Source: Ostreococcus lucimarinus (Eukaryota). From it: a stretch of 64,000 bases of DNA. The notes beneath the pieces were generated by a model, which was given only the letters and a program-made list of their open reading frames with translations, did not search any database and had not been told where the DNA came from. The first letter of the stretch is position 1. The number at the start of each line of letters is the position of its first letter. The translations under genes and the position numbers were made by a program. This document shows positions 12,829 to 53,949 of the stretch, one piece after another. The DNA lies in assembly GCA_000092065.1 (NCBI GenBank), contig CP000590.1; one strand, given 5' to 3'.

Positions 12829-13689
12829 CGCTCGCTTCGCCGCGTCGTTCCCTCGCCGCCGCTTCCCGCGTCGGCGTTCGCCTTCGCGTTCGCGTCCCGC
12901 CGCCTCCTTCCCTCGCCGCGCCCCCTCGCCGCGCCTTCCCGTCGTCCGTCGACGCGCGTTCGCCTCCGCGCTTTCGCACCATCTCGTCGCCGATCCCGGG
13001 CCGTCGTCTTCGCGCGCGCGCTCCCACGCCATGTCGAGATTCGCGTCTCCGACGACCGACGCTCGTCGACGACGCGCGCGCGGATCGCGGCGCGTCGACG
13101 CGCGTCGACGCGGCGCGCGAAGCGCCGAGAACGTCGACGAGCGTTCGCGTCGGAGCGCGTCGGACGCCGCGCTCTGACGCGCGCTGACGCGCGCTGACGC
13201 CGACGAATGACGATTCGTCGACGCCGAGACGCGACCGCGACGACGGACGCGCGCCGAGACGAACGCGCGCGTCGCGGGCGACGACGCGATTCGGGGCGTC
13301 GGCGTGCGTCGGCGTGCGTGGGTTCTCTCATGGCGTTCACGACGCGTTGAATGCGGAAACGTGACGGGTATAATTAGGGTTGCGACGGCATCACCGGACG
13401 GGACGCCAGGCTTTCTTCCCGACGCGACCGGCGCGACCGGCGCTCCGGCGCGTCGGCACTCGTCGACGCGATGGGCGGACGCGTGCGACGATCGAACGAT
13501 CGCGCGCGCGCGAACGACGCGACGCGCGCGGACGAAGAGATGGGCGACGCGGACGCCGCGCGGGCGAACGCGAACGCGAACGCGAACGACGCGACGACGG
13601 CGCCGCGCGGTGAAGGTGCGGGGAAAAATCGCGCGATTCGTTCGATTGATTGTCGCGTCGCGTCGACGCGTCGTGCGTTGGCGAGTTCG

Positions 13690-27447: not shown

Positions 27448-27705
27448 TCGCGCGCGTCGCGGCGCCTCGCGCGCGCGCCGCGACGCGCCGCGCGATCGTC
27501 GCGCCGAAGTCGCACCTCTATCGCCAGGCGTATCGCGCCCCCGCGCGCGAGCGCGTCGCCGTCCGCGCGCATCGCTGTGCGGTGCCGCGCGACGCGGCCG
27601 ACGCCCTCGCGGGTTCCGCGCGAACAACGGGCGCGAGACGGCGCAGAGTACGCGTCGTCGATCGGGTCGAGTGTTTATGCACACGGGGATTCGTTCGTAT
27701 TGTAG

Positions 27706-27725
27706 TTAGGGTCGTTAGGGTTTAT
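27706..27725. promoter_or_regulatory. Telo-box-like motif (TTAGGGTCGTTAGGGTTT, reverse complement of AAACCCTAA) ~105 bp upstream of the YchJ-like gene
   Basis: Direct reading. Same motif class as the sites at 30979 and 51687. Confidence 0.4.
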
Positions 27726-30836: not shown

Positions 30837-30978
30837 CGTCCGTCGTCGCGCCGTCGTCGTGTGTCGCGCCGCGCGCGCGGCGGCGATCGATCGCGGCCCG
30901 CGCCGCGTCGCCGTTCGAGCGTTTCTATTTAGACATCCACCTACCCGGAATACGCGCCGAATGGAGATATCAGAGCGA

Positions 30979-31013
30979 TCCTAAACCCTAAACCGATCCT
31001 CAACCCTAAACAC
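30979..31013. repeat. Interstitial plant-type telomere-like repeat (CTAAACCCTAAACC...CAACCCTAAAC) in the divergent ATPS/HSP60 promoter
   Basis: Direct reading. Corresponds to the AAACCCTAA telo-box cis-element class. Confidence 0.65.
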
Positions 31014-31169
31014 CCGGGCGTGGAAAAAGGCCCCCGACGCGACGCGTCCCACATCGCCACGCGACGACGCGACGAACGGCGCGATGCGACGACACGCGAC
31101 GCGCGCGATGCGAGCGCTCACGCGGTACGACGACGACGACGACGACGAACGCGTGCGATGCGCGCGAGC

Positions 31170-33384
<2,215 letters not shown>

Positions 33385-38700: not shown

Positions 38701-41700
38701 ATGAGCGGGAAGAAACGCGCGCGGGGCGGGCGGCGGGTGACGGTGGACGCGGAGGTGGAGACGTCGCAGCGGGAGCGGGTGACGTACGGGGCGCCGAGCG
38801 GGACGACGACGACGACGACGACGGCGACGGCGACGACGACGACGGAGGCGAATGGGAGCGCGCGGCACGGTGATAGCGCGGCGATGGAACGATTGTTCGC
38901 GTTAGGCGCGGGAACGGTCGCGGGGGGGGGCGAAAACGATGCTGATGATGGATTAGGGGTGTGGTTGAGCGAGAGCGAATTCGGCGGCGGCGGCGGCGGC
39001 GCGAGGGGGAAGTCGAACGCGGTGGGCGCGAACGGCGAGCGTGGGAGGCTTTCCGTGCCCGTGGCGCCGGCGTGGGAAGAATCATCGGCGGAGAAGTCAC
39101 CGGGGGGGCGGAGACGACGGGCGAGCCGCGATGGCGAGGAGCGAAGACGATCGGAGGATTTGTTTGAGGAATTGTTGACAAACGTCGAGCGCGGCGCGCC
39201 GGCGCGAGACTCCGCGCCGGCGACGATGGAAGTCGCGACGACGACGACGGCGTCCGCGGTGAATACACGCAAAGAAGGTGACCACACGCTTGCGCTGGCG
39301 TCGATGGATCCCGATTGGAACGACGAGGATGAGGATAGTCAGGCGCTCATCGACGCCGTGACGCTCGCGGAGAAGCGCGCCAAGATGGCAAAGTCGGCTT
39401 CTGCGACGACGACGCAAGCGAGTAACGCCGTGCCTTCGCTGAGCGATATAACCCTAGACGATGGCGATGACGACGACGACTTATTCGCCGCCGCGGTGGA
39501 TATGGCTGAAAAAGCGCGCGACAGTCGCGTTGAGTCCGGAACGCCGTCCACGGCGACTTCCCCTAGGAAATCGCCTAGGAAATCCGCCGCGGTCGCGGCT
39601 TGCGCGCGCACGCAATCGGCGACTGCGCGAGTTAAAATTGAAGATGGCTTTATGGAAGATTGCAAGGCGGAGTTGCAGAAAGCGTTGGAATTCGCGAGAG
39701 AAGAAGCGGAGGCAGAGACTGAAATTCTAGGCACCTGGTTCGTCGAAAGCGTCGCGTCGCCGCGGATTGGCTGCGTCGAATCCCTCGTCCTGACGAAGGC
39801 TAGCGGTGCAAAGAAGACTGTCGTGCTGAAGGGTTATTGGCGAGAAACCCTGGTTTCAGTGGGAGATTCTCTGATCTTGTACTGTTTGCCCGGCGTGGCG
39901 CGCAAAGAAGACGTCGCGAAGGATATTGTCGAAGTCACTGACGATGGAGGGGTGATGATTATTCTTTTCCCGGCGTACTTGATAAGTGCGACGACGATAG
40001 GGAATGGTATGGACTGCCCTCGACAATCAGTGTTGCAGCAACAACTGCAGACGACGTGGGGTGACGCGAACGAGGCGGCGACGATCGGTACTATTATGCA
40101 CGATCTCGTTGAGCACGCGCTCCTCGTCGGATCGAGCCGAGCACTCGTGCCGATGGCTTCCAAGGTGAAGAGCGTGATCGAAAGCAACGTGGACAATATA
40201 TTCGCCATCGATTCAACCGAAAAGAAGCTGCAGCAAAGAATAGATGCGACCATTCCAGGTGTGGAATCATGGGCTAACAAGCTCACGGCGGCGTCTCGTG
40301 TGCCAAAGCTTGGTCGCGCGAAGCCCGGCGGCAACGCCCAGGTGCGAATGAACAGAAAAGCTGCGCACGATAAGCTTCGAAGAAAGTGCACTGTGGGCGT
40401 CGAGGCAAGCTTGGATTACAATACGTCTGCAACGTTGCAAGTTGACGACATGATTGACATAGAAGAACTCATTTGGGCTCCAAAACTTGGATTAAAAGGC
40501 ATCTTGGACGGCGTCGCAAACGCCGTCATACGTCAATCGAAGGAAGATTTACCATTGCCGAGCGTCGTTCCGATCGAGTTGAAGACGGGTAAGTGGAAGT
40601 CTGTCGGTCACGACGCACAAGTCTTGTTTTATAATCTTATGATCGGCGAACGCTACGGCAAAGTGTCTCCTTTCGGCGTATTGCACTACACCACGGACGA
40701 TAATGACGACGAAGGCACGAGTAAAATTTTCACGAATAAGCCGGCTAACATCAGCGCTCTGATGCAGCGTCGGAATCACCTTGCGGCAATGTTAAGACCG
40801 ACGCCCGAAGAAGCGATGCAACACAACGCTCCAGTCCCGCACGGCAAGGCCCGTCTCGGGAACGGTAAGCTGCCGAAGATGCAGCCACAAAGCTGGTGTG
40901 AGCGTTGCTTCTCACAGCACGAGTGTTTCAGCTTGCATCGCGCGCTCGAGGGAGGAGACGGCGAAACAAGCGAGCTCGGCAATTTGTTCATCGGCGCCAC
41001 CTCGCATCTGAACCAGACTCACGAAACAGCAATCCGTCACTGGATTCATCTGATTGATTTGGAATCTTCCGAGTCTTTGCGCAAGCGTGCAACTCCGTGG
41101 CTTCCGGTTGAACTCGTCAATCGTCGCGCGAGCGACACGTACGCGATCGACGACCTCGCTTTTGTTCGTGAAAGCACGCAAGAGAAGTCTGCATTCGTCG
41201 GTGATAATCACTATTACATATTCAAACCCTCAAGTTCTGTCGCAGAAAGCGTTCTGAAGAGAGTTGGGATCGCCGATCGCGTCGTCTTGAGTCGCGACAA
41301 AGGCTTGACGGTGATTTCTCGCGCACAAATCATTCGCATCTCAAATGATTCTGGCGAGGTCGTCATCGAAATGGCTACAGAACGACCATTACGCCGGGAT
41401 ACCGCAAATAATGCGATGGCACCGTTACCGGGATCGTCCGAAGAGAGCGCGCTATGGAGAATCGATAAAGACGGGGCTTCTCTCACCATGGCCGCGAGGA
41501 CTCGTGGAAACGTTCTCGCGTTGTTTACCCAAACAGAACGCGCCGCTATCATTCGTCGACGCATCATCGATTTGGAGCGACCCAAGTTCGCTCCAATTGG
41601 TGACCATAAGAGGAAAATCGAAGTCGCACTCAAAGATCTCGGCTTCCCTTTGAACGACGAGCAGCTTTTGGCAGTCGAAAAGATCGTTACGGCTGAAGAT

Positions 41701-47621: not shown

Positions 47622-48679
47622 ATGGGGAAGCGCGCGGCGCCCGACGCGACGACGGGCGACGCGGAGAGCCGACGGGTCGAGCGCGAGGCGAAGTGTCGCG
47701 GGACGGTCGAGGCGCTGAACGCGCAGTTCGCGGCGTGGATCGCGCGACGCGCGATCGAATCGCCGATCGTGAGTTGGCGTCGAGGGTGCGAGGATTACTT
47801 GAAACATCTCGATCGCGTCAAGGTGCGCGAACGCCCGGGCGATGCGATGCGCGCGCGCGAGTTTTTGCTCGCGACGAGGCGACGCGCGACGCGACGAGGC
47901 GACGCGTCGACGCGAACGTGAGGACTGAATGAATGAGACGACGACGCGCGCAGGTTGATTTCGGCGACGTGTTGGAACGCGTCGAGGACGAGAACGACGG
48001 AGAGACGACGAAGGCGACGACGACGGCGAGCGATGGGCGCGTGGACGCGAAGGGGAGCGTGAATCCGTTCGGGGGGGGCGCGGTGGCGGCGGTGCCGGCG
48101 GCGGGATCGATTTTTGGGAGTTTGCCGACGGCGCCGGGATCGACGTTTGGCGCGCCGTTCGGCGGCGGCGGGGGGCTGTTCGGCGGTGGGACGGCGCCGG
48201 GCGCGGGGACGGCGGCGGACGACGAGGACGAGGATGAGCCCGCGCGACCGAGCTCGCCGTCGTATCAGGCCAACGAGGCGGTGGAGGACGAGAAAGAGGT
48301 GGTGCTCTTGCGCGTCGGCAAGGTGAAATTTCACACGAAGAAGGACGCCGGGGATAAAAATTGGGCCGATCGCGGGGTGAATAGCTTTGAGTTTAGACGC
48401 GAAAAGGCGCCGAGCGAGGGCGACGTGAAGCGCTGTAGGTTGCTGATGCGAAACACCATCGGTAAAGCGGTGTTAAACGCGGGTTTGTACCCGAAAATGT
48501 CCTCGCAATTGACTGAAAAGAAGATGAAGGATGGGAGCGCCGTTCAAAACGGCTTGATCGCCACCGTGTTCAACGCCGAGGAAGAAAACCAAAAAGTCAT
48601 GGTTTATTTACGTTTCGGCAAGGAGAGCGACGCGAAAGAGTTACACAAGCTCATCTCCGAAAACGTGGCGACGCTTTAG
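47622..48679 (+). CDS. NUP50: Nucleoporin NUP50/Nup2-like with C-terminal Ran-binding domain. Two exons: 47622..47822 and 47944..48679, with a 121-bp intron.
   Basis: N-terminal MGKRAAPDATTGD...LNAQFAAWIARRAIESPIVSWRRGCEDYLKHL parallels NUP50 MAKR...LNCSVRDWIVKHV..NPLCDLTPIFKDYEKYL. C-terminal RanBD: KEVVLLRVGKVKFHTKK...CRLLMRNTIGKAVLNAGLYPKMS...KVMVYLRFGKESDAKELHKLISE. Donor AAG|gtgcgc, acceptor gcgcag|GTT. Confidence 0.65.
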
Positions 48680-50062: not shown

Positions 50063-51073
50063 TTATCGCGGTGCGCCGTCGGTGGACGTCGGCGCGTCGT
50101 CGTCGTCGTCGGCGGTCGGCGACGCGTCTTCGTCTTCGTCTTCGTCTTCGTCTTCGTCTCGCGCGCGCTCGGCGTCTTTGATTTTCGCGTCCGCCTCGTT
50201 CGATCGATTCGCGATTTTCACCACCTTGCGCGCGGGCACGACGGCTTCTATGGCTTCGCCCCAATCGCCGCGCTCGAGAAACGACGTCAAGACGTCCGCC
50301 GTTTGGTTCACGGTGAGCACGGGCGCGCCGCGCGTCTCGAGAAACTCGCCGATCGGCAACCGCGCGTGTTCGACGCCCAATTCCCGAGCCTTGCGCAGCG
50401 TCAGCCCTTTGTGTCGATTACGATCGATGAACCCACCGATGACGTACGTCTTCCCCGCCTCTATCTCGCGCAGTTCGCGCTCGCTATCGGCGGTGAGATA
50501 CACGAGCGACTTCGCCGTCGTCTCGCTCTCCGCCGCCGTCTCCCTCAACGTCTTCCCCAACCGCACGACGTGCCAATTCTCCCACCCCGCGTTCATCCTT
50601 CCCATCTGTTCCTCGAACGCTTCGCTCATTCGCGTGAAGCTCATCTTAAACGGCGCCGTCGTCTTACAATTCCTCTCGTACGCCGCGCGCAACTGTTTCA
50701 TCAAGCTCCCCCACCGCTCGCGTTCCATCGTCGTCGTCAGATCCTCGTCGCAATCGATCGTCAATCCGTACGCCGACGAGAGCTGCGCCCGTCGCCTTTC
50801 CTTCCTCTCCGCCGTCTCGCGTCGTCGCGCCTCGATCCTCGCGCCGCGCTCGACGAAAAACGCGTCCCGCGCCTCGCTCGACATCGCGTTCACTTTGGAG
50901 TGAAACGCCGCCTTGGTCGACGCCGCGACGTCGGCTTTGCGCCTCTTCGCCTCGGCGCGCTTCGCGAGCTTGGCGTCGCATCGTCGCTGTCGCTTGAGCC
51001 GCTTTTTCATCGCGCGCTTGCTCTCGGCGCGCCGGACGACGTCGCCATCGTCGCCGTCGTCGCGGGTCGCCAT
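50063..51073 (-). CDS. TRM10: tRNA (guanine/adenine-9-N1)-methyltransferase TRM10/TRMT10 (SPOUT class)
   Basis: LTIDCDEDLT...SLVYLTADSERELREIEAGKTYVIGGFIDRNRHKGLTLRKARELGVEHARLPI...PVLTVNQTADVL matches the TRM10 SPOUT core. Basic N-terminus from the ATG at 51073. Confidence 0.7.
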   Translation of the reverse strand: MATRDDGDDGDVVRRAESKRAMKKRLKRQRRCDAKLAKRAEAKRRKADVAASTKAAFHSKVNAMSSEARDAFFVERGARIEARRRETAERKERRRAQLSSAYGLTIDCDEDLTTTMERERWGSLMKQLRAAYERNCKTTAPFKMSFTRMSEAFEEQMGRMNAGWENWHVVRLGKTLRETAAESETTAKSLVYLTADSERELREIEAGKTYVIGGFIDRNRHKGLTLRKARELGVEHARLPIGEFLETRGAPVLTVNQTADVLTSFLERGDWGEAIEAVVPARKVVKIANRSNEADAKIKDAERARDEDEDEDEDEDASPTADDDDDAPTSTDGAPR

Positions 51074-51129
51074 GACGCGCGCGCCGCGCTCTATCACCGT
51101 CGTTTTCGCTCTACATCCGTCGGCGGACG

Positions 51130-51142
51130 ATAACCCTAAATC
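51130..51142. promoter_or_regulatory. Telo-box-like AACCCTAAA motif about 60 bp upstream of the TRM10 start codon
   Basis: gataaccctaaatc read directly. Confidence 0.35.
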
Positions 51143-51321
51143 AGAAGGAGATTATTTGTTACACAAAATTGTTCACGACTACGACGCGAAGACATATAAA
51201 TAGAGCGCTCAAGACTTGGTAAACGACCGTCCGCGCCCCGAAACGCGGCGTCACACGCGCGCGCGGGACCACTCGCGAGCGAACGAACGAACGAGCGACA
51301 CGTTTCAAATTTCTTTTCTTC

Positions 51322-51477
51322 ATGGCGTGCGATAAGTGCGGCGACGCGTGCGCGTGCGGCCCGGGTGCGTGCGCGTGCGCGAGCGCGCTGACGTGTCATG
51401 CGTGCGGGCACAAGAGTTGCGGCTGCGCGCGATGTAGATGCGCGTGCGATTCGTGCCAGTGCCAGACGAAGAAGTGA
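51322..51477 (+). CDS. Candidate metallothionein-like small Cys-rich protein (51 aa, 15 Cys), not in the >=60-aa ORF track
   Basis: MACDKCGDACACGPGACACASALTCHACGHKSCGCARCRCACDSCQCQTKK. Repeated CxC/CxxC pairs. ATG in TTCATGG context. TATAAATA at 51197..51206 (~115 bp upstream). Sits alone in a 370-bp gap between the TRM10 promoter and TRAP1. Caveat: GCGTGC-rich DNA can yield Cys-Ala runs by chance. Confidence 0.35.
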   Translation: MACDKCGDACACGPGACACASALTCHACGHKSCGCARCRCACDSCQCQTKK

Positions 51478-51686
51478 TGATTGCGTCACTTTTTTCGTCG
51501 GCGCATTCCGCCGCGCGCGCTCGGGGCGCGAGTTCCGAGGGCGACCGCGGAGGATGCGACCGAGGGCGACCGCGGAGGATGCGACCGAGGGGAAGGATGA
51601 AAGTTACCGTGGCAACACTCAATAGCAGTGCTTTTCAATCAATCAATACACGATTTTCCACTGAAACAACTTTTTAATGAATAATA

Positions 51687-51706
51687 CTAAACCCTAAACC
51701 CTAAAC
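51687..51706. repeat. Interstitial plant-type telomere repeat (CTAAACCCTAAACCCTAAAC, ~3 units) in the TRAP1 promoter
   Basis: Direct reading, 140 bp upstream of the TRAP1 ATG. Confidence 0.7.
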
Positions 51707-51846
51707 TAAGTAAGGCGTTAATGAATAATAAGGCGTCGCGCGCGTCTTTGTATGGGTCGGTCGGTCGGTGTCGCGTCGCGTCCTTCGCGCGTCCACGGCG
51801 TTCGCGACGCCGAAATCCGCGTCGCACGACGACGCGGATTTCGGCG

Positions 51847-53949
51847 ATGCTGACGGTGGCGCGCGCGTGTCGACGGCGCGCCGCGCGCGCGGTCCGGCGC
51901 GGCGTCGCGGACGCGCGCGCGACGCGCGGGGCGTCGACGACGACGGATCGCGCGTGGGACACATCTTCATCATCTGCGTCGGCGTCGGCGCGGACGTCGA
52001 CGGCGCGGACGACGAGGCGCGGACGGGCGACGGAGCGCCTGGCGTTCCGCGCGGAGACGAAACGATTGCTGGACATCGTGACGAACTCGCTGTACGAGGA
52101 CAAGGAGGTGTATCTGCGAGAGCTGGTGTCGAACGCGAGCGACGCGCTGGAGAAGGCGCGACACGCGGCGCTGACGGAGACGCCGAACGAGGAGGAACTC
52201 GCGATAAAGATCGCGACGGATGAGGGCGAGGGGAAGGTGCTGGTGGTGTCGGATAACGGGGTCGGGATGACGCGGGAGGAGCTGATGGAGAATTTGGGGA
52301 CGATCGCGCGGAGCGGGAGCAAGGCGTTTTTGGAGGGGTTGGACGCGGACGCGGACGCGGCGTCGAACATCATCGGGAAATTCGGCGTGGGGTTCTACGC
52401 GAGTTTCATGGTGAGCGATAAGGTGGAGGTGATCTCGAACGCGGGCGCGCGAGGGGATGGGAAGGCGTGGAAGTGGAGCTCGACCGGGGATGGAGAGTTT
52501 ACGATTGAGGAGGCGACGGAGAGCGACGAGGCGCCGACGCGGGGGACGAAAATCGTGATGCACATCAAAAGCGACGATAAACACTTGACGTCCAAGTGGG
52601 GGGTGGAGACGGTGCTGAAAAAGTACAGCTCGTTCGTCGCGTTCCCGGTGCTGTTGAATGGGCACAAGATGAACGACGTCGGGGCGCTTTGGATGAAGGA
52701 TGAAAAGGACATAACCGACGACGATTCCATCGCGTTTTACCGCTTTGTGAGCGGCGCGAGCGACATGCCGCCGTTTCGCATGTCGTTCAAAGCCGATGCG
52801 CCCATGACGATTCGAAGCTTGCTGTACTTTCCCGAAGAAAATCCCGAACGCGTCGCCGGATTCGGCGGGCAGACGAATTCGGGCGTGTCGCTGTACGCCA
52901 GGCGCGTGATGATTCAAGAGAAGACGGAAAAATTGCTCCCGGCGTTTTTGCGCTTTGTGCGCGGCGTGGTCGATTGCGAAGACATCCCGCTGAACATCTC
53001 GCGCGAGTCGCTTCAAGATTCCATGCTCGTCATGCGGCTCGGCCAAATAATCACAAAGCGCGTGCTCAAGTTTTTGGATGAAAAGGCGAAGAAGGAGCCG
53101 GAAAAGTACAACAAATGGTTCGCCAATCTCGGCTTCTTCTTGAAGGAGGGCGTGTGCTCGGAGTACGCGTACAAACTCGAACTCGCAGAGCTGTTGCGTT
53201 ACGAATCGAGCTCGACGGAGACTGGAAAATTGACGTCTTTCCGCGAGTACGCCGCGCGCATGCCCGAGGGACAAGACAAAGTGTATTACATCGTCGCGCC
53301 GTCGCGGCTGCAAGCCGAAGCGTCGCCGTATTTGGAAGCGGCGAAGTCGCGGGGCTACGAAGTTTTGTTCTTGTACGCTCACATCGATGAGTTCGTGATG
53401 CAGCACTTAATGAGCGTCGCGGGCAAGCAATTGGTGAGCGTTGAAGCCGCAAATCTCGACGTCGACGGCGAAAAAGCCGACGGTGAAGAGTCAAAATCAA
53501 ACGACGCCGCGGCGTTGGACGACGCCGCGGGCGCGGAACTTTGTAAGTGGTTCAGCGACGACGCTCTCGCGGGAAAGCTCAAGGAGGTGAAGCTGAGTAA
53601 CAGATTGGTGAGCTCTCCCGCGCTCATCTCCGGACACGAGCCCGAAGCCATGAGACGGTACCGCATGGTTCAAACCATGGCGAGCGACGCGGCGGCGAGT
53701 AAAAAGCTCGCCGAGATGTCCAACGACTTCTCCATGATGACGCTCGAGTTGAATCCGAAACACGAAATGATCAAAAGGATCAACGCCGCGCGCACGAGCG
53801 AAGACGCCGGCACGCGAAGATTAGCCGCGCTGGTCGCCGAACAAATATTTGACAACGCGCGCGTCGCCGCGGGATCTTTAGACGATCCTCGAGCGATGCT
53901 CGGTCGTCTGAACGAAATTCTCGAAAAGACGCTTCCGGCGAAGGAGTAG
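51847..53949 (+). CDS. TRAP1: Mitochondrial HSP90 paralogue TRAP1
   Basis: Extended collinearity with TRAP1: FRAETKRLLDIVTNSLYEDKEVYLRELVSNASDALEKARH, GTIARSGSKAF, IGKFGVGFYASFMV, LRFVRGVVDCEDIPLNISRE, KLTSFREYAARM, NPKHEMIKRIN, DPRAMLGRLNEIL. Arg-rich presequence. Start at the first ATG 51847; the ORF-track start at 51721 is non-ATG. Confidence 0.9.
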   Translation: MLTVARACRRRAARAVRRGVADARATRGASTTTDRAWDTSSSSASASARTSTARTTRRGRATERLAFRAETKRLLDIVTNSLYEDKEVYLRELVSNASDALEKARHAALTETPNEEELAIKIATDEGEGKVLVVSDNGVGMTREELMENLGTIARSGSKAFLEGLDADADAASNIIGKFGVGFYASFMVSDKVEVISNAGARGDGKAWKWSSTGDGEFTIEEATESDEAPTRGTKIVMHIKSDDKHLTSKWGVETVLKKYSSFVAFPVLLNGHKMNDVGALWMKDEKDITDDDSIAFYRFVSGASDMPPFRMSFKADAPMTIRSLLYFPEENPERVAGFGGQTNSGVSLYARRVMIQEKTEKLLPAFLRFVRGVVDCEDIPLNISRESLQDSMLVMRLGQIITKRVLKFLDEKAKKEPEKYNKWFANLGFFLKEGVCSEYAYKLELAELLRYESSSTETGKLTSFREYAARMPEGQDKVYYIVAPSRLQAEASPYLEAAKSRGYEVLFLYAHIDEFVMQHLMSVAGKQLVSVEAANLDVDGEKADGEESKSNDAAALDDAAGAELCKWFSDDALAGKLKEVKLSNRLVSSPALISGHEPEAMRRYRMVQTMASDAAASKKLAEMSNDFSMMTLELNPKHEMIKRINAARTSEDAGTRRLAALVAEQIFDNARVAAGSLDDPRAMLGRLNEILEKTLPAKE

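Follow-up and report, generated by a model that had tools for sequence, protein, structure and literature searches.

A telomere-like array upstream of the mitochondrial HSP90 gene (TRAP1) of Ostreococcus lucimarinus, found in the 64,000-nucleotide stretch of DNA analysed here (the window), is on balance probably a young, short interstitial telomeric sequence (ITS) that was added in the repair of a DNA break, and not a conserved regulator of TRAP1 or of mitochondrial chaperones. The site is polymorphic for insertion and empty alleles, the array is flanked by target duplications and the motif was absent from all of the orthologous promoters examined.

The array and other telo motifs in the window

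The array (CTAAACCCTAAACCCTAAAC; 51687-51706, plus strand) contains two complete CCCTAAA units and a partial unit at either end, or 2.86 units in total, with the G-rich TTTAGGG strand on the minus strand. It spans 141-160 nt upstream of the TRAP1 start codon (51847), leaving a gap of exactly 140 nt. The original prediction, a three-unit repeat 140 bp upstream of TRAP1, was correct as to the array, its place and the 140 nt, and slightly generous in its unit count. The same array was recovered in L001 (from SRR1179203) and L048 (from ERZ27293168), which are independent assemblies, and it is therefore not an assembly artefact. The repeat unit is the telomere unit (CCCTAAA/TTTAGGG) of O. lucimarinus CCE9901 itself; TTTAGGG has been described as the telomere unit of this species, in which POT1 binds GGGTTTAGGGT (PMC2794166).

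A repeat search together with a comparison of haplotypes identified a 13-nt direct duplication flanking the array, with a left copy, TTAATGAATAATA, at 51674-51686 and an AT-rich right copy of the duplicated target, TTAATGAATAATAAGGCG, at 51718-51735 (both plus strand). The latter may, from its sequence, also act as a TATA-like element approximately 112-129 nt before the TRAP1 ATG. Between the array and the right copy lies a junction filler, TAAGTAAGGCG (51707-51717, plus strand). Read against the empty site of contig L014, this filler comprised a degenerate telomere remnant, CTAAG, that runs across the array end, and then TAAGGCG, copied from the downstream flank.

The TRAP1 gene (51847-53949, plus strand; Pfam HSP90/HATPase_c) encodes 700 aa and its ORF is identical to XP_001419897.1, [quoted passage not shown]. 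It is divergent from a TRM10-type tRNA m1G methyltransferase gene (50063-51073, minus strand; PF01746, and PF27710 in orthologues), and the local order is TRM10 (-), a 51-aa Cys-rich ORF (+), TRAP1 (+), TFIIS (-) and an FHA protein (+). A word search located a single telo-box, AACCCTAAA, at 51132-51140 (plus strand), where the TRM10 telo-box had been placed at 51130 by the original prediction. It precedes the TRM10 ATG (51073, minus strand) by 59 nt and the TATA-like box of the small ORF by 55 nt, and its place and orientation vary among haplotypes.

Repeat search and folding also revealed an inverted repeat (51799-51855, plus strand) with a 17-bp perfect GC-rich stem ending at the TRAP1 ATG, for which the RNA minimum free energy was -45.1 kcal/mol compared with -29.2 +/- 3.0 in shuffles (z -5.3). 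One nucleotide separates the end of the hairpin from the start codon. The arms of this hairpin differ by haplotype, with a compensatory A:T to C:G change in L047 and L050 and broken pairs in L014, L048 and L009. In a heat-shock gene such a hairpin may have a translational or thermosensing role, or it may be no more than a palindrome. As snoRNA genes of plants are marked by telo boxes, 50900-52000 was scanned against Rfam, which returned nothing above threshold and only a sub-threshold match to the hairpin; the array is not an Rfam RNA. The bacterial-type promoter and terminator scan of the region is uninformative for a eukaryote.

Motif abundance in the window was compared with dinucleotide shuffles of the window, in which 0.00 occurrences of the 14-mer CCCTAAACCCTAAA were expected, and AAACCCTAA was found four times, including two within the array, against 0.09 expected. 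Shuffle-based enrichment of the 7-mer is inflated by the patchy composition of the window, where GC-rich genes alternate with AT-rich spacers, and ranks among k-mers of the same composition were used in its place. By this measure AACCCTA, with eight matches, was only about 20th among 140 7-mers, AACCCTAA, with seven matches, was second among 280 words, and AACCCTAAA (five matches) and AAACCCTAA (four) were the top two among 504 9-mers, for which the mean was 0.30.

At least six of the eight AACCCTA matches were outside credible coding sequence. These intergenic sites, 60-160 nt from start codons, are at 27716 (before a YchJ-like gene), 30984 and 31002 (ATP-sulfurylase/HSP60), 51132 (TRM10/small ORF) and 51690 and 51697 (the array). 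The match at 39450 is within a 1415-aa ORF and that at 13375 is in an Arg-rich extension upstream of a JmjC gene; the latter is graded only as probably non-coding since the greedy ORF map behind the split is approximate, antisense ORFs in GC-rich DNA being spurious. Most telo sites in the window were 60-350 nt upstream of start codons. The identification of a genuine telomere-unit or telo-box-type motif is upheld, as are its over-representation in the window and its location mostly in 5' intergenic sequence. The genes beside the window telo-boxes encode JmjC, YchJ-like/bromodomain, ATP-sulfurylase/HSP60, TRM10, the small Cys-rich ORF and TRAP1, and the telo-boxes are not specific to mitochondrial chaperones.

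Two further sites were characterized. Two telo-like units (27700-27723, minus strand; TTAGGGTcgtTAGGGTTTA on the plus strand) are located 107 nt upstream of the YchJ-like ATG (27830). A TAGGGTT-type motif is found downstream of the bromodomain gene both here and in O. tauri (L039 644-650), in contexts that could not be aligned, and the YchJ-like gene that follows the window motif is apparently missing in O. tauri. At HSP60, the word search returned an 18-nt tandem duplication, CGATCCT[A/C]AACCCTAAAC x2 (30976-31011, plus strand), that is absent in orthologous spacers. The two HSP60 telo-boxes are the two halves of this duplication, which indicates that the pair arose by local duplication of one unit. 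The HSP60 gene itself is split (window 31084-32300), as a stop separates both candidate ATGs (31084 and 31108) from the first HSP60-homologous ORF (from 31285) and a second gap lies between 32124 and 32302, which implies introns. The O. tauri Cpn60 gene spans 2220 bp for 587 aa.

A lineage-specific segment between TRM10 and TRAP1

Pairwise alignment showed that a 721-bp segment of the window (51080-51800) replaces 90 bp of L009, a relative with 97% identity, and that homology between the two resumes approximately 46 nt short of the TRAP1 start codon. This segment includes the two telo sites, a 25-nt tandem duplication and the small Cys-rich ORF. The array is thus contained in an insertion of 0.6-0.9 kb that is found only in the O. 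lucimarinus clade.

The cross-species comparison covered two genomic neighbourhoods, TRAP1 and HSP60. The TRAP1 set included O. tauri (L002), two environmental clades (L003-L005 and L006-L008), a 92% relative and the 97%-identical relatives L009 and L015. The gene order TRM10(-)/TRAP1(+)/TFIIS(-)/FHA(+) was kept in O. tauri, both environmental clades and the closest relatives L009 and L015. The TRM10-TRAP1 spacer was short in O. tauri, the two other clades and the 92% and 97% relatives, with neither a telo motif nor a metallothionein-like ORF; in L009 it measured 142 bp and likewise lacked both. Spacers upstream of TRAP1 in the other lineages were 142-290 bp, GC-rich and free of the telo motif. 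AACCCTA was found in none of 20 related loci between -1500 and +300 of TRAP1, each with at least 580 bp of upstream sequence, and the HSP60 telo-boxes were found in none of six ATP-sulfurylase/Cpn60 spacers from O. tauri (L039) and the two other clades (L040-L044). The motif is thus missing from the orthologous promoters of TRAP1 (20 loci) and HSP60 (six loci), an outcome that the original prediction had named as refuting it, and the reading as a conserved regulon is not supported.

A telomere-unit motif was observed elsewhere in the neighbourhood of TRAP1 in a different environmental Ostreococcus clade with 78% TRAP1 identity, where AACCCTAACCCTAAACC lies in the AT-rich divergent spacer of TFIIS and FHA (L024 5748-5764, also in L026 and L030). 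The corresponding spacer of the window has no telo motif, unlike L024, and the spacers of the sister sub-clades to these three contigs could not be aligned. Spacers outside O. lucimarinus can therefore carry telomere-unit motifs as well.

Four contigs with TRAP1 genes approximately 99-100% identical to that of the window (L045, L046, L048 and L049) carried a 1072-bp spacer made up of the ends of the ancestral short spacer and an insert of approximately 930 bp. This insert includes an AT-rich stretch, one telo-box, a TATA-like box, the Cys-rich ORF, the 25-nt tandem duplication and an AT-rich tract with the array. The window segment is a deletion derivative of the long form, approximately 297 bp shorter, with the deletion at a CGC microhomology. 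Spacer sizes were 142 bp (L009 and L015), 773 bp (window), approximately 815 bp (L014) and 1072 bp (L045, where it occupies 429-1500, L046, L048 and L049), and the structure of this spacer is therefore unstable across the O. lucimarinus complex.

The unannotated small ORF found by the ORF search (51322-51477, plus strand; MACDKCGDACACGPGACACASALTCHACGHKSCGCARCRCACDSCQCQTKK) encodes a 51-aa Cys-rich, metallothionein-like product with 16 Cys, and sequence inspection placed a TATA-like box, TATAAATAG, at 51195-51203 (plus strand). By tblastn it was intact in all ten insertion-bearing contigs with 96-100% aa identity, occurring only in contigs of the O. lucimarinus clade and always within the 0.6-0.9 kb insertion. 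It matched no Pfam family and no exact gene call, had no homologue in an index of 5.8 billion proteins and no second copy in the sequences searched.

Other variation was seen in this spacer. The tandem duplication in the 3' flank of the small ORF (51535-51584) is a perfect repeat of CCGAGGGCGACCGCGGAGGATGCGA x2, and its unit is 28 nt, with an extra GTT, in L013 and L037. In contig L012 (1-139) TRAP1 is 100% identical to that of the window and the upstream sequence diverges completely from approximately 50 nt before the ATG. This reflects either an artefact of the contig end or one more structural variant. The metagenome contigs L001, L011 and L012 break inside the TRM10-TRAP1 spacer.

Allelic states of the array and of the upstream telo-box

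The array site was compared between the fixed anchors CCACTGAAACAAC and GGCGTCGCGCGCGTC, and three states were distinguished among the ten insertion-bearing contigs and the window. In the empty state, TTTTTAATGAATAATGAATAATAA, which was represented by L014 only, the same insertion and flanks are present with no array. Type 1, TTTTT[AATGAATAATAATGA][ACCCTAAACCCTAA][AATGAATAATAATGA]ATAATAA, occurred in seven contigs (L013, L037, L045, L046, L047, L049 and L050) and has exactly 14 nt, or two telomere units, between perfect 15-nt direct repeats of the target. Type 2, TTTT[TAATGAATAATA]CTAAACCCTAAACCCTAAACTAAG[TAAGGCGT][TAATGAATAATAAGGCGT], occurred in three sequences (window, L001 and L048) and combines the 13-nt target duplication with 2.9 units, the degenerate CTAAG and the copied downstream flank TAAGGCG. 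Nine of the ten insertion haplotypes had the array.

The pre-insertion sequences predicted from these alleles vary solely in the number of AAT/AATGAAT units, which indicates that the tract is itself a small microsatellite, and the L014 sequence is one AAT off the empty site predicted from type 1. A viral origin was considered and rejected, as the small ORF had no relative in viral contigs and the type-1 junction did not occur in them.

Exactly one telomere unit was present in the 130 bp before the TATA region of the small ORF in 10/10 insertion haplotypes, in four configurations. The first is gacgatAACCCTAAAtcag (window, L013, L045 and L046) and the second is ggAAACCCTAGtac in another sequence context (L014 and L037). 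In the third (L047, L048 and L049) the first site is cut to gacgaataatcag and 35 nt beside the TATA box are replaced by exactly AACCCTA, and in the fourth (L050) an inverted unit, TTAGGGTT, is at the TATA-adjacent place. Variants of the left-hand and right-hand sides appeared in several combinations, indicating recombination or possibly mosaic assembly of the metagenomes; metagenome contigs may be strain mosaics. The empty allele is represented by a single metagenomic contig (L014), and so is the fourth configuration (L050). Within 0.6 kb there were at least five different types of junction.

Origin of the array and comparison with known systems

In vertebrates, the insertion of ITSs at double-strand breaks is accompanied by direct repetition of the flank, deletions and inversions, with empty alleles segregating in the population (PMC7215372; PMC2246262). 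Three of the four features of repair-inserted ITSs that were tested were present at this locus, namely perfect head-to-tail telomeric units at an internal chromosomal site, an allelic empty site without the repeat (in the single contig L014) and changes at the break site. The last comprised the 15-nt duplication, the 13-nt duplication with copied TAAGGCG, the 35-nt deletion replaced by AACCCTA and the inverted unit in L050. The fourth feature was direct signs of telomerase, either in-register microhomology at the 3' end or flanks copied from telomerase RNA. The last letters of the G-strand primer, T or TT, are in register, which means little in AT-rich DNA, and as the 3' end is T-rich the microhomology is uninformative.

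In the proposed sequence of events, a segment carrying the small Cys-rich ORF would have entered the TRM10-TRAP1 spacer in the O. lucimarinus lineage only. Two to three telomere units would have been joined to a DNA end exposed by a break or nick in an AT-rich spacer that was probably free of nucleosomes, supplied by telomerase or by copying from a telomeric template, and error-prone end joining would have sealed the break and duplicated 13-15 nt of the target. Insertion is the direction we infer for this change; the flanking direct repeats could equally promote loss of the array. The segment would be a hotspot in which single units appear, vanish and invert at four places upstream of the small ORF. 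Once present, duplex TTTAGGG repeats might be bound by Myb-type telomere-repeat proteins and would constitute a local, lineage-specific telo-box for the promoters of TRAP1 and the small ORF. A model for the spread of plant telo-boxes holds that promoters are break-prone and that, prior to error-prone repair, telomerase non-processively extends free 3' ends by a single unit (PMC3022908). The locus fits this telomerase/repair model of Gaspin et al. closely.

Some of the data fit selection for a functional site, as one telo-box was present upstream of the small ORF in every haplotype and the array in nearly all, and there are hints in the sequence that the array or the box was co-opted as a promoter site. 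More tentatively, the young promoter region may be a hotspot for writing, moving and removing telomere units in natural populations, in which telo-boxes are born by telomerase-assisted repair and the retained box reflects co-option by selection; this fuller reading is possible rather than probable.

Whether the array is instead a lineage-specific functional telo-box, that is, a selected TRFL/TRB-like Myb site that activates or insulates the promoters of the small ORF and the remodelled TRAP1, with its positional variation being site turnover, was also considered. This is rather unlikely, and would not conflict with an origin in break repair. Two Myb proteins of the TRFL type are encoded by O. 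lucimarinus (PMC3400083) and could bind two to three duplex repeats. The telo 9-mers being the top two composition-matched words, the position of most sites 60-350 nt upstream of start codons, the single box upstream of the small ORF in 10/10 haplotypes despite four configurations with the array in 9/10, and the placing of the array 12-30 nt upstream of the AT-rich TATA-like target copy are likewise consistent with such a site. However, there was no conservation beyond the clade at the TRAP1 and HSP60 loci, L014 has the same proximal TRAP1 promoter without an array and a mutational hotspot could yield an equal pattern. Site II (TGGGCY), the partner of plant telo-boxes, was found nowhere within 1 kb of the TRAP1 or HSP60 telo-boxes (the nearest were at 48362 and 60389) and TGGGCY was not enriched in the window (18 versus 25.8 expected).

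The original prediction was that a telomere-motif-binding factor co-regulates HSP60 and TRAP1 and that the spacer is a hub also serving TRM10. It draws on the occurrence of both chaperone genes in one 64-kb window with telomere-unit repeats 75-160 nt upstream of a candidate ATG, and on the telo boxes that mark growth-related regulons in land plants (PMC3022908). Such a conserved regulon is nonetheless very unlikely, given that the motif was missing at the 20 related TRAP1 loci, including the 97%-identical relatives, and from the HSP60 promoters of O. tauri and the two other clades, that a haplotype without the array exists (L014), that the remaining telo-boxes flank unrelated genes and that the plant telo-box/site II module is absent. 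The supposed hub (51080-51800) is a recent, lineage-specific insertion. It is scarcely credible that a 7-nt periodic AT-rich tract, (AATGAAT)n, drifted by chance or slippage to a telomere-like word, or that the array was left behind by a chromosome fusion or a former subtelomere. The tract around it does vary as a 7-nt/3-nt microsatellite (AATGAAT, AAT), yet the perfect 16-20-nt telomere sequence starts abruptly between intact duplicated flanks with no intermediates, and the expected number of occurrences of the 14-mer was 0.00. As for a fusion relic or subtelomeric ITS, the 20-nt perfect run is too short and clean, there was no head-to-head or long degenerate array, and the TRM10-TRAP1-TFIIS-FHA order is kept on both sides in all clades.

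If the array is indeed a repair-derived ITS, the site says little on chaperone regulation and would allow the origin of telomere-derived promoter motifs to be viewed at population level, which is rare. The plant telomerase/repair model has so far rested on genome-wide distributions (PMC3022908). At this locus, alleles with no units, two units and three units occur side by side within a single species complex, together with diagnostic target duplications. O. lucimarinus is a tiny, culturable and transformable alga, so that with these coexisting alleles the origin and any immediate regulatory effect would be directly testable. This population snapshot of telo-box birth might be the only part likely to interest the specialist. 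The locus would also serve as a warning that shared telomere-like motifs alone should not imply a regulon without a check of orthologous promoters. No telo-box analysis in Ostreococcus or other prasinophyte algae was found in the literature searched.

The plant telo box, AAACCCTA[A], is a short interstitial telomere motif that Arabidopsis and rice genes carry in their promoters and 5'UTRs (Gaspin, Rami and Lescure 2010, PMC3022908). As in plants, the motif described here has the sequence of the host telomere unit, is over-represented and is mostly in 5' flanks near start codons, and the origin proposed for the plant element through telomerase and error-prone repair fits the flanking duplications and one-unit filler at this site. 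It differs in having two to three tandem units rather than one, in that the genes downstream are not translation-apparatus genes and in that the host is a prasinophyte alga. Plant telo boxes are defined at about -50 to +50 (up to +150) of the transcription start; the array is placed relative to the ATG, 141-160 nt upstream of it. Plant telo-box factors of the TRB, TRFL and Pur-alpha types bind the motif and modulate expression synergistically. Because the site II partnership and conservation in orthologous promoters are both missing, the array was not assigned to the plant telo-box regulon.

The short ITSs of vertebrates (Nergadze et al. 2007, PMC2246262; Santagostino et al. 2020, PMC7215372) are similar in being short perfect internal telomeric runs with orthologous or allelic empty sites, a repeated break flank, deletions, inversions and within-species insertion polymorphism. 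They are typically 25-100+ nt in length compared with 14-20 nt here, where in addition several events cluster within 0.6 kb of one promoter region. In yeast, the Rap1 "rpg" boxes are telomere-like sites in ribosomal-protein promoters and share with the present site the concept of telomere-repeat-binding proteins that double as promoter factors, whereas the element here lacks conservation and a regulon is not supported for it. The element would work like, and probably arose like, plant telo boxes and vertebrate short ITSs.
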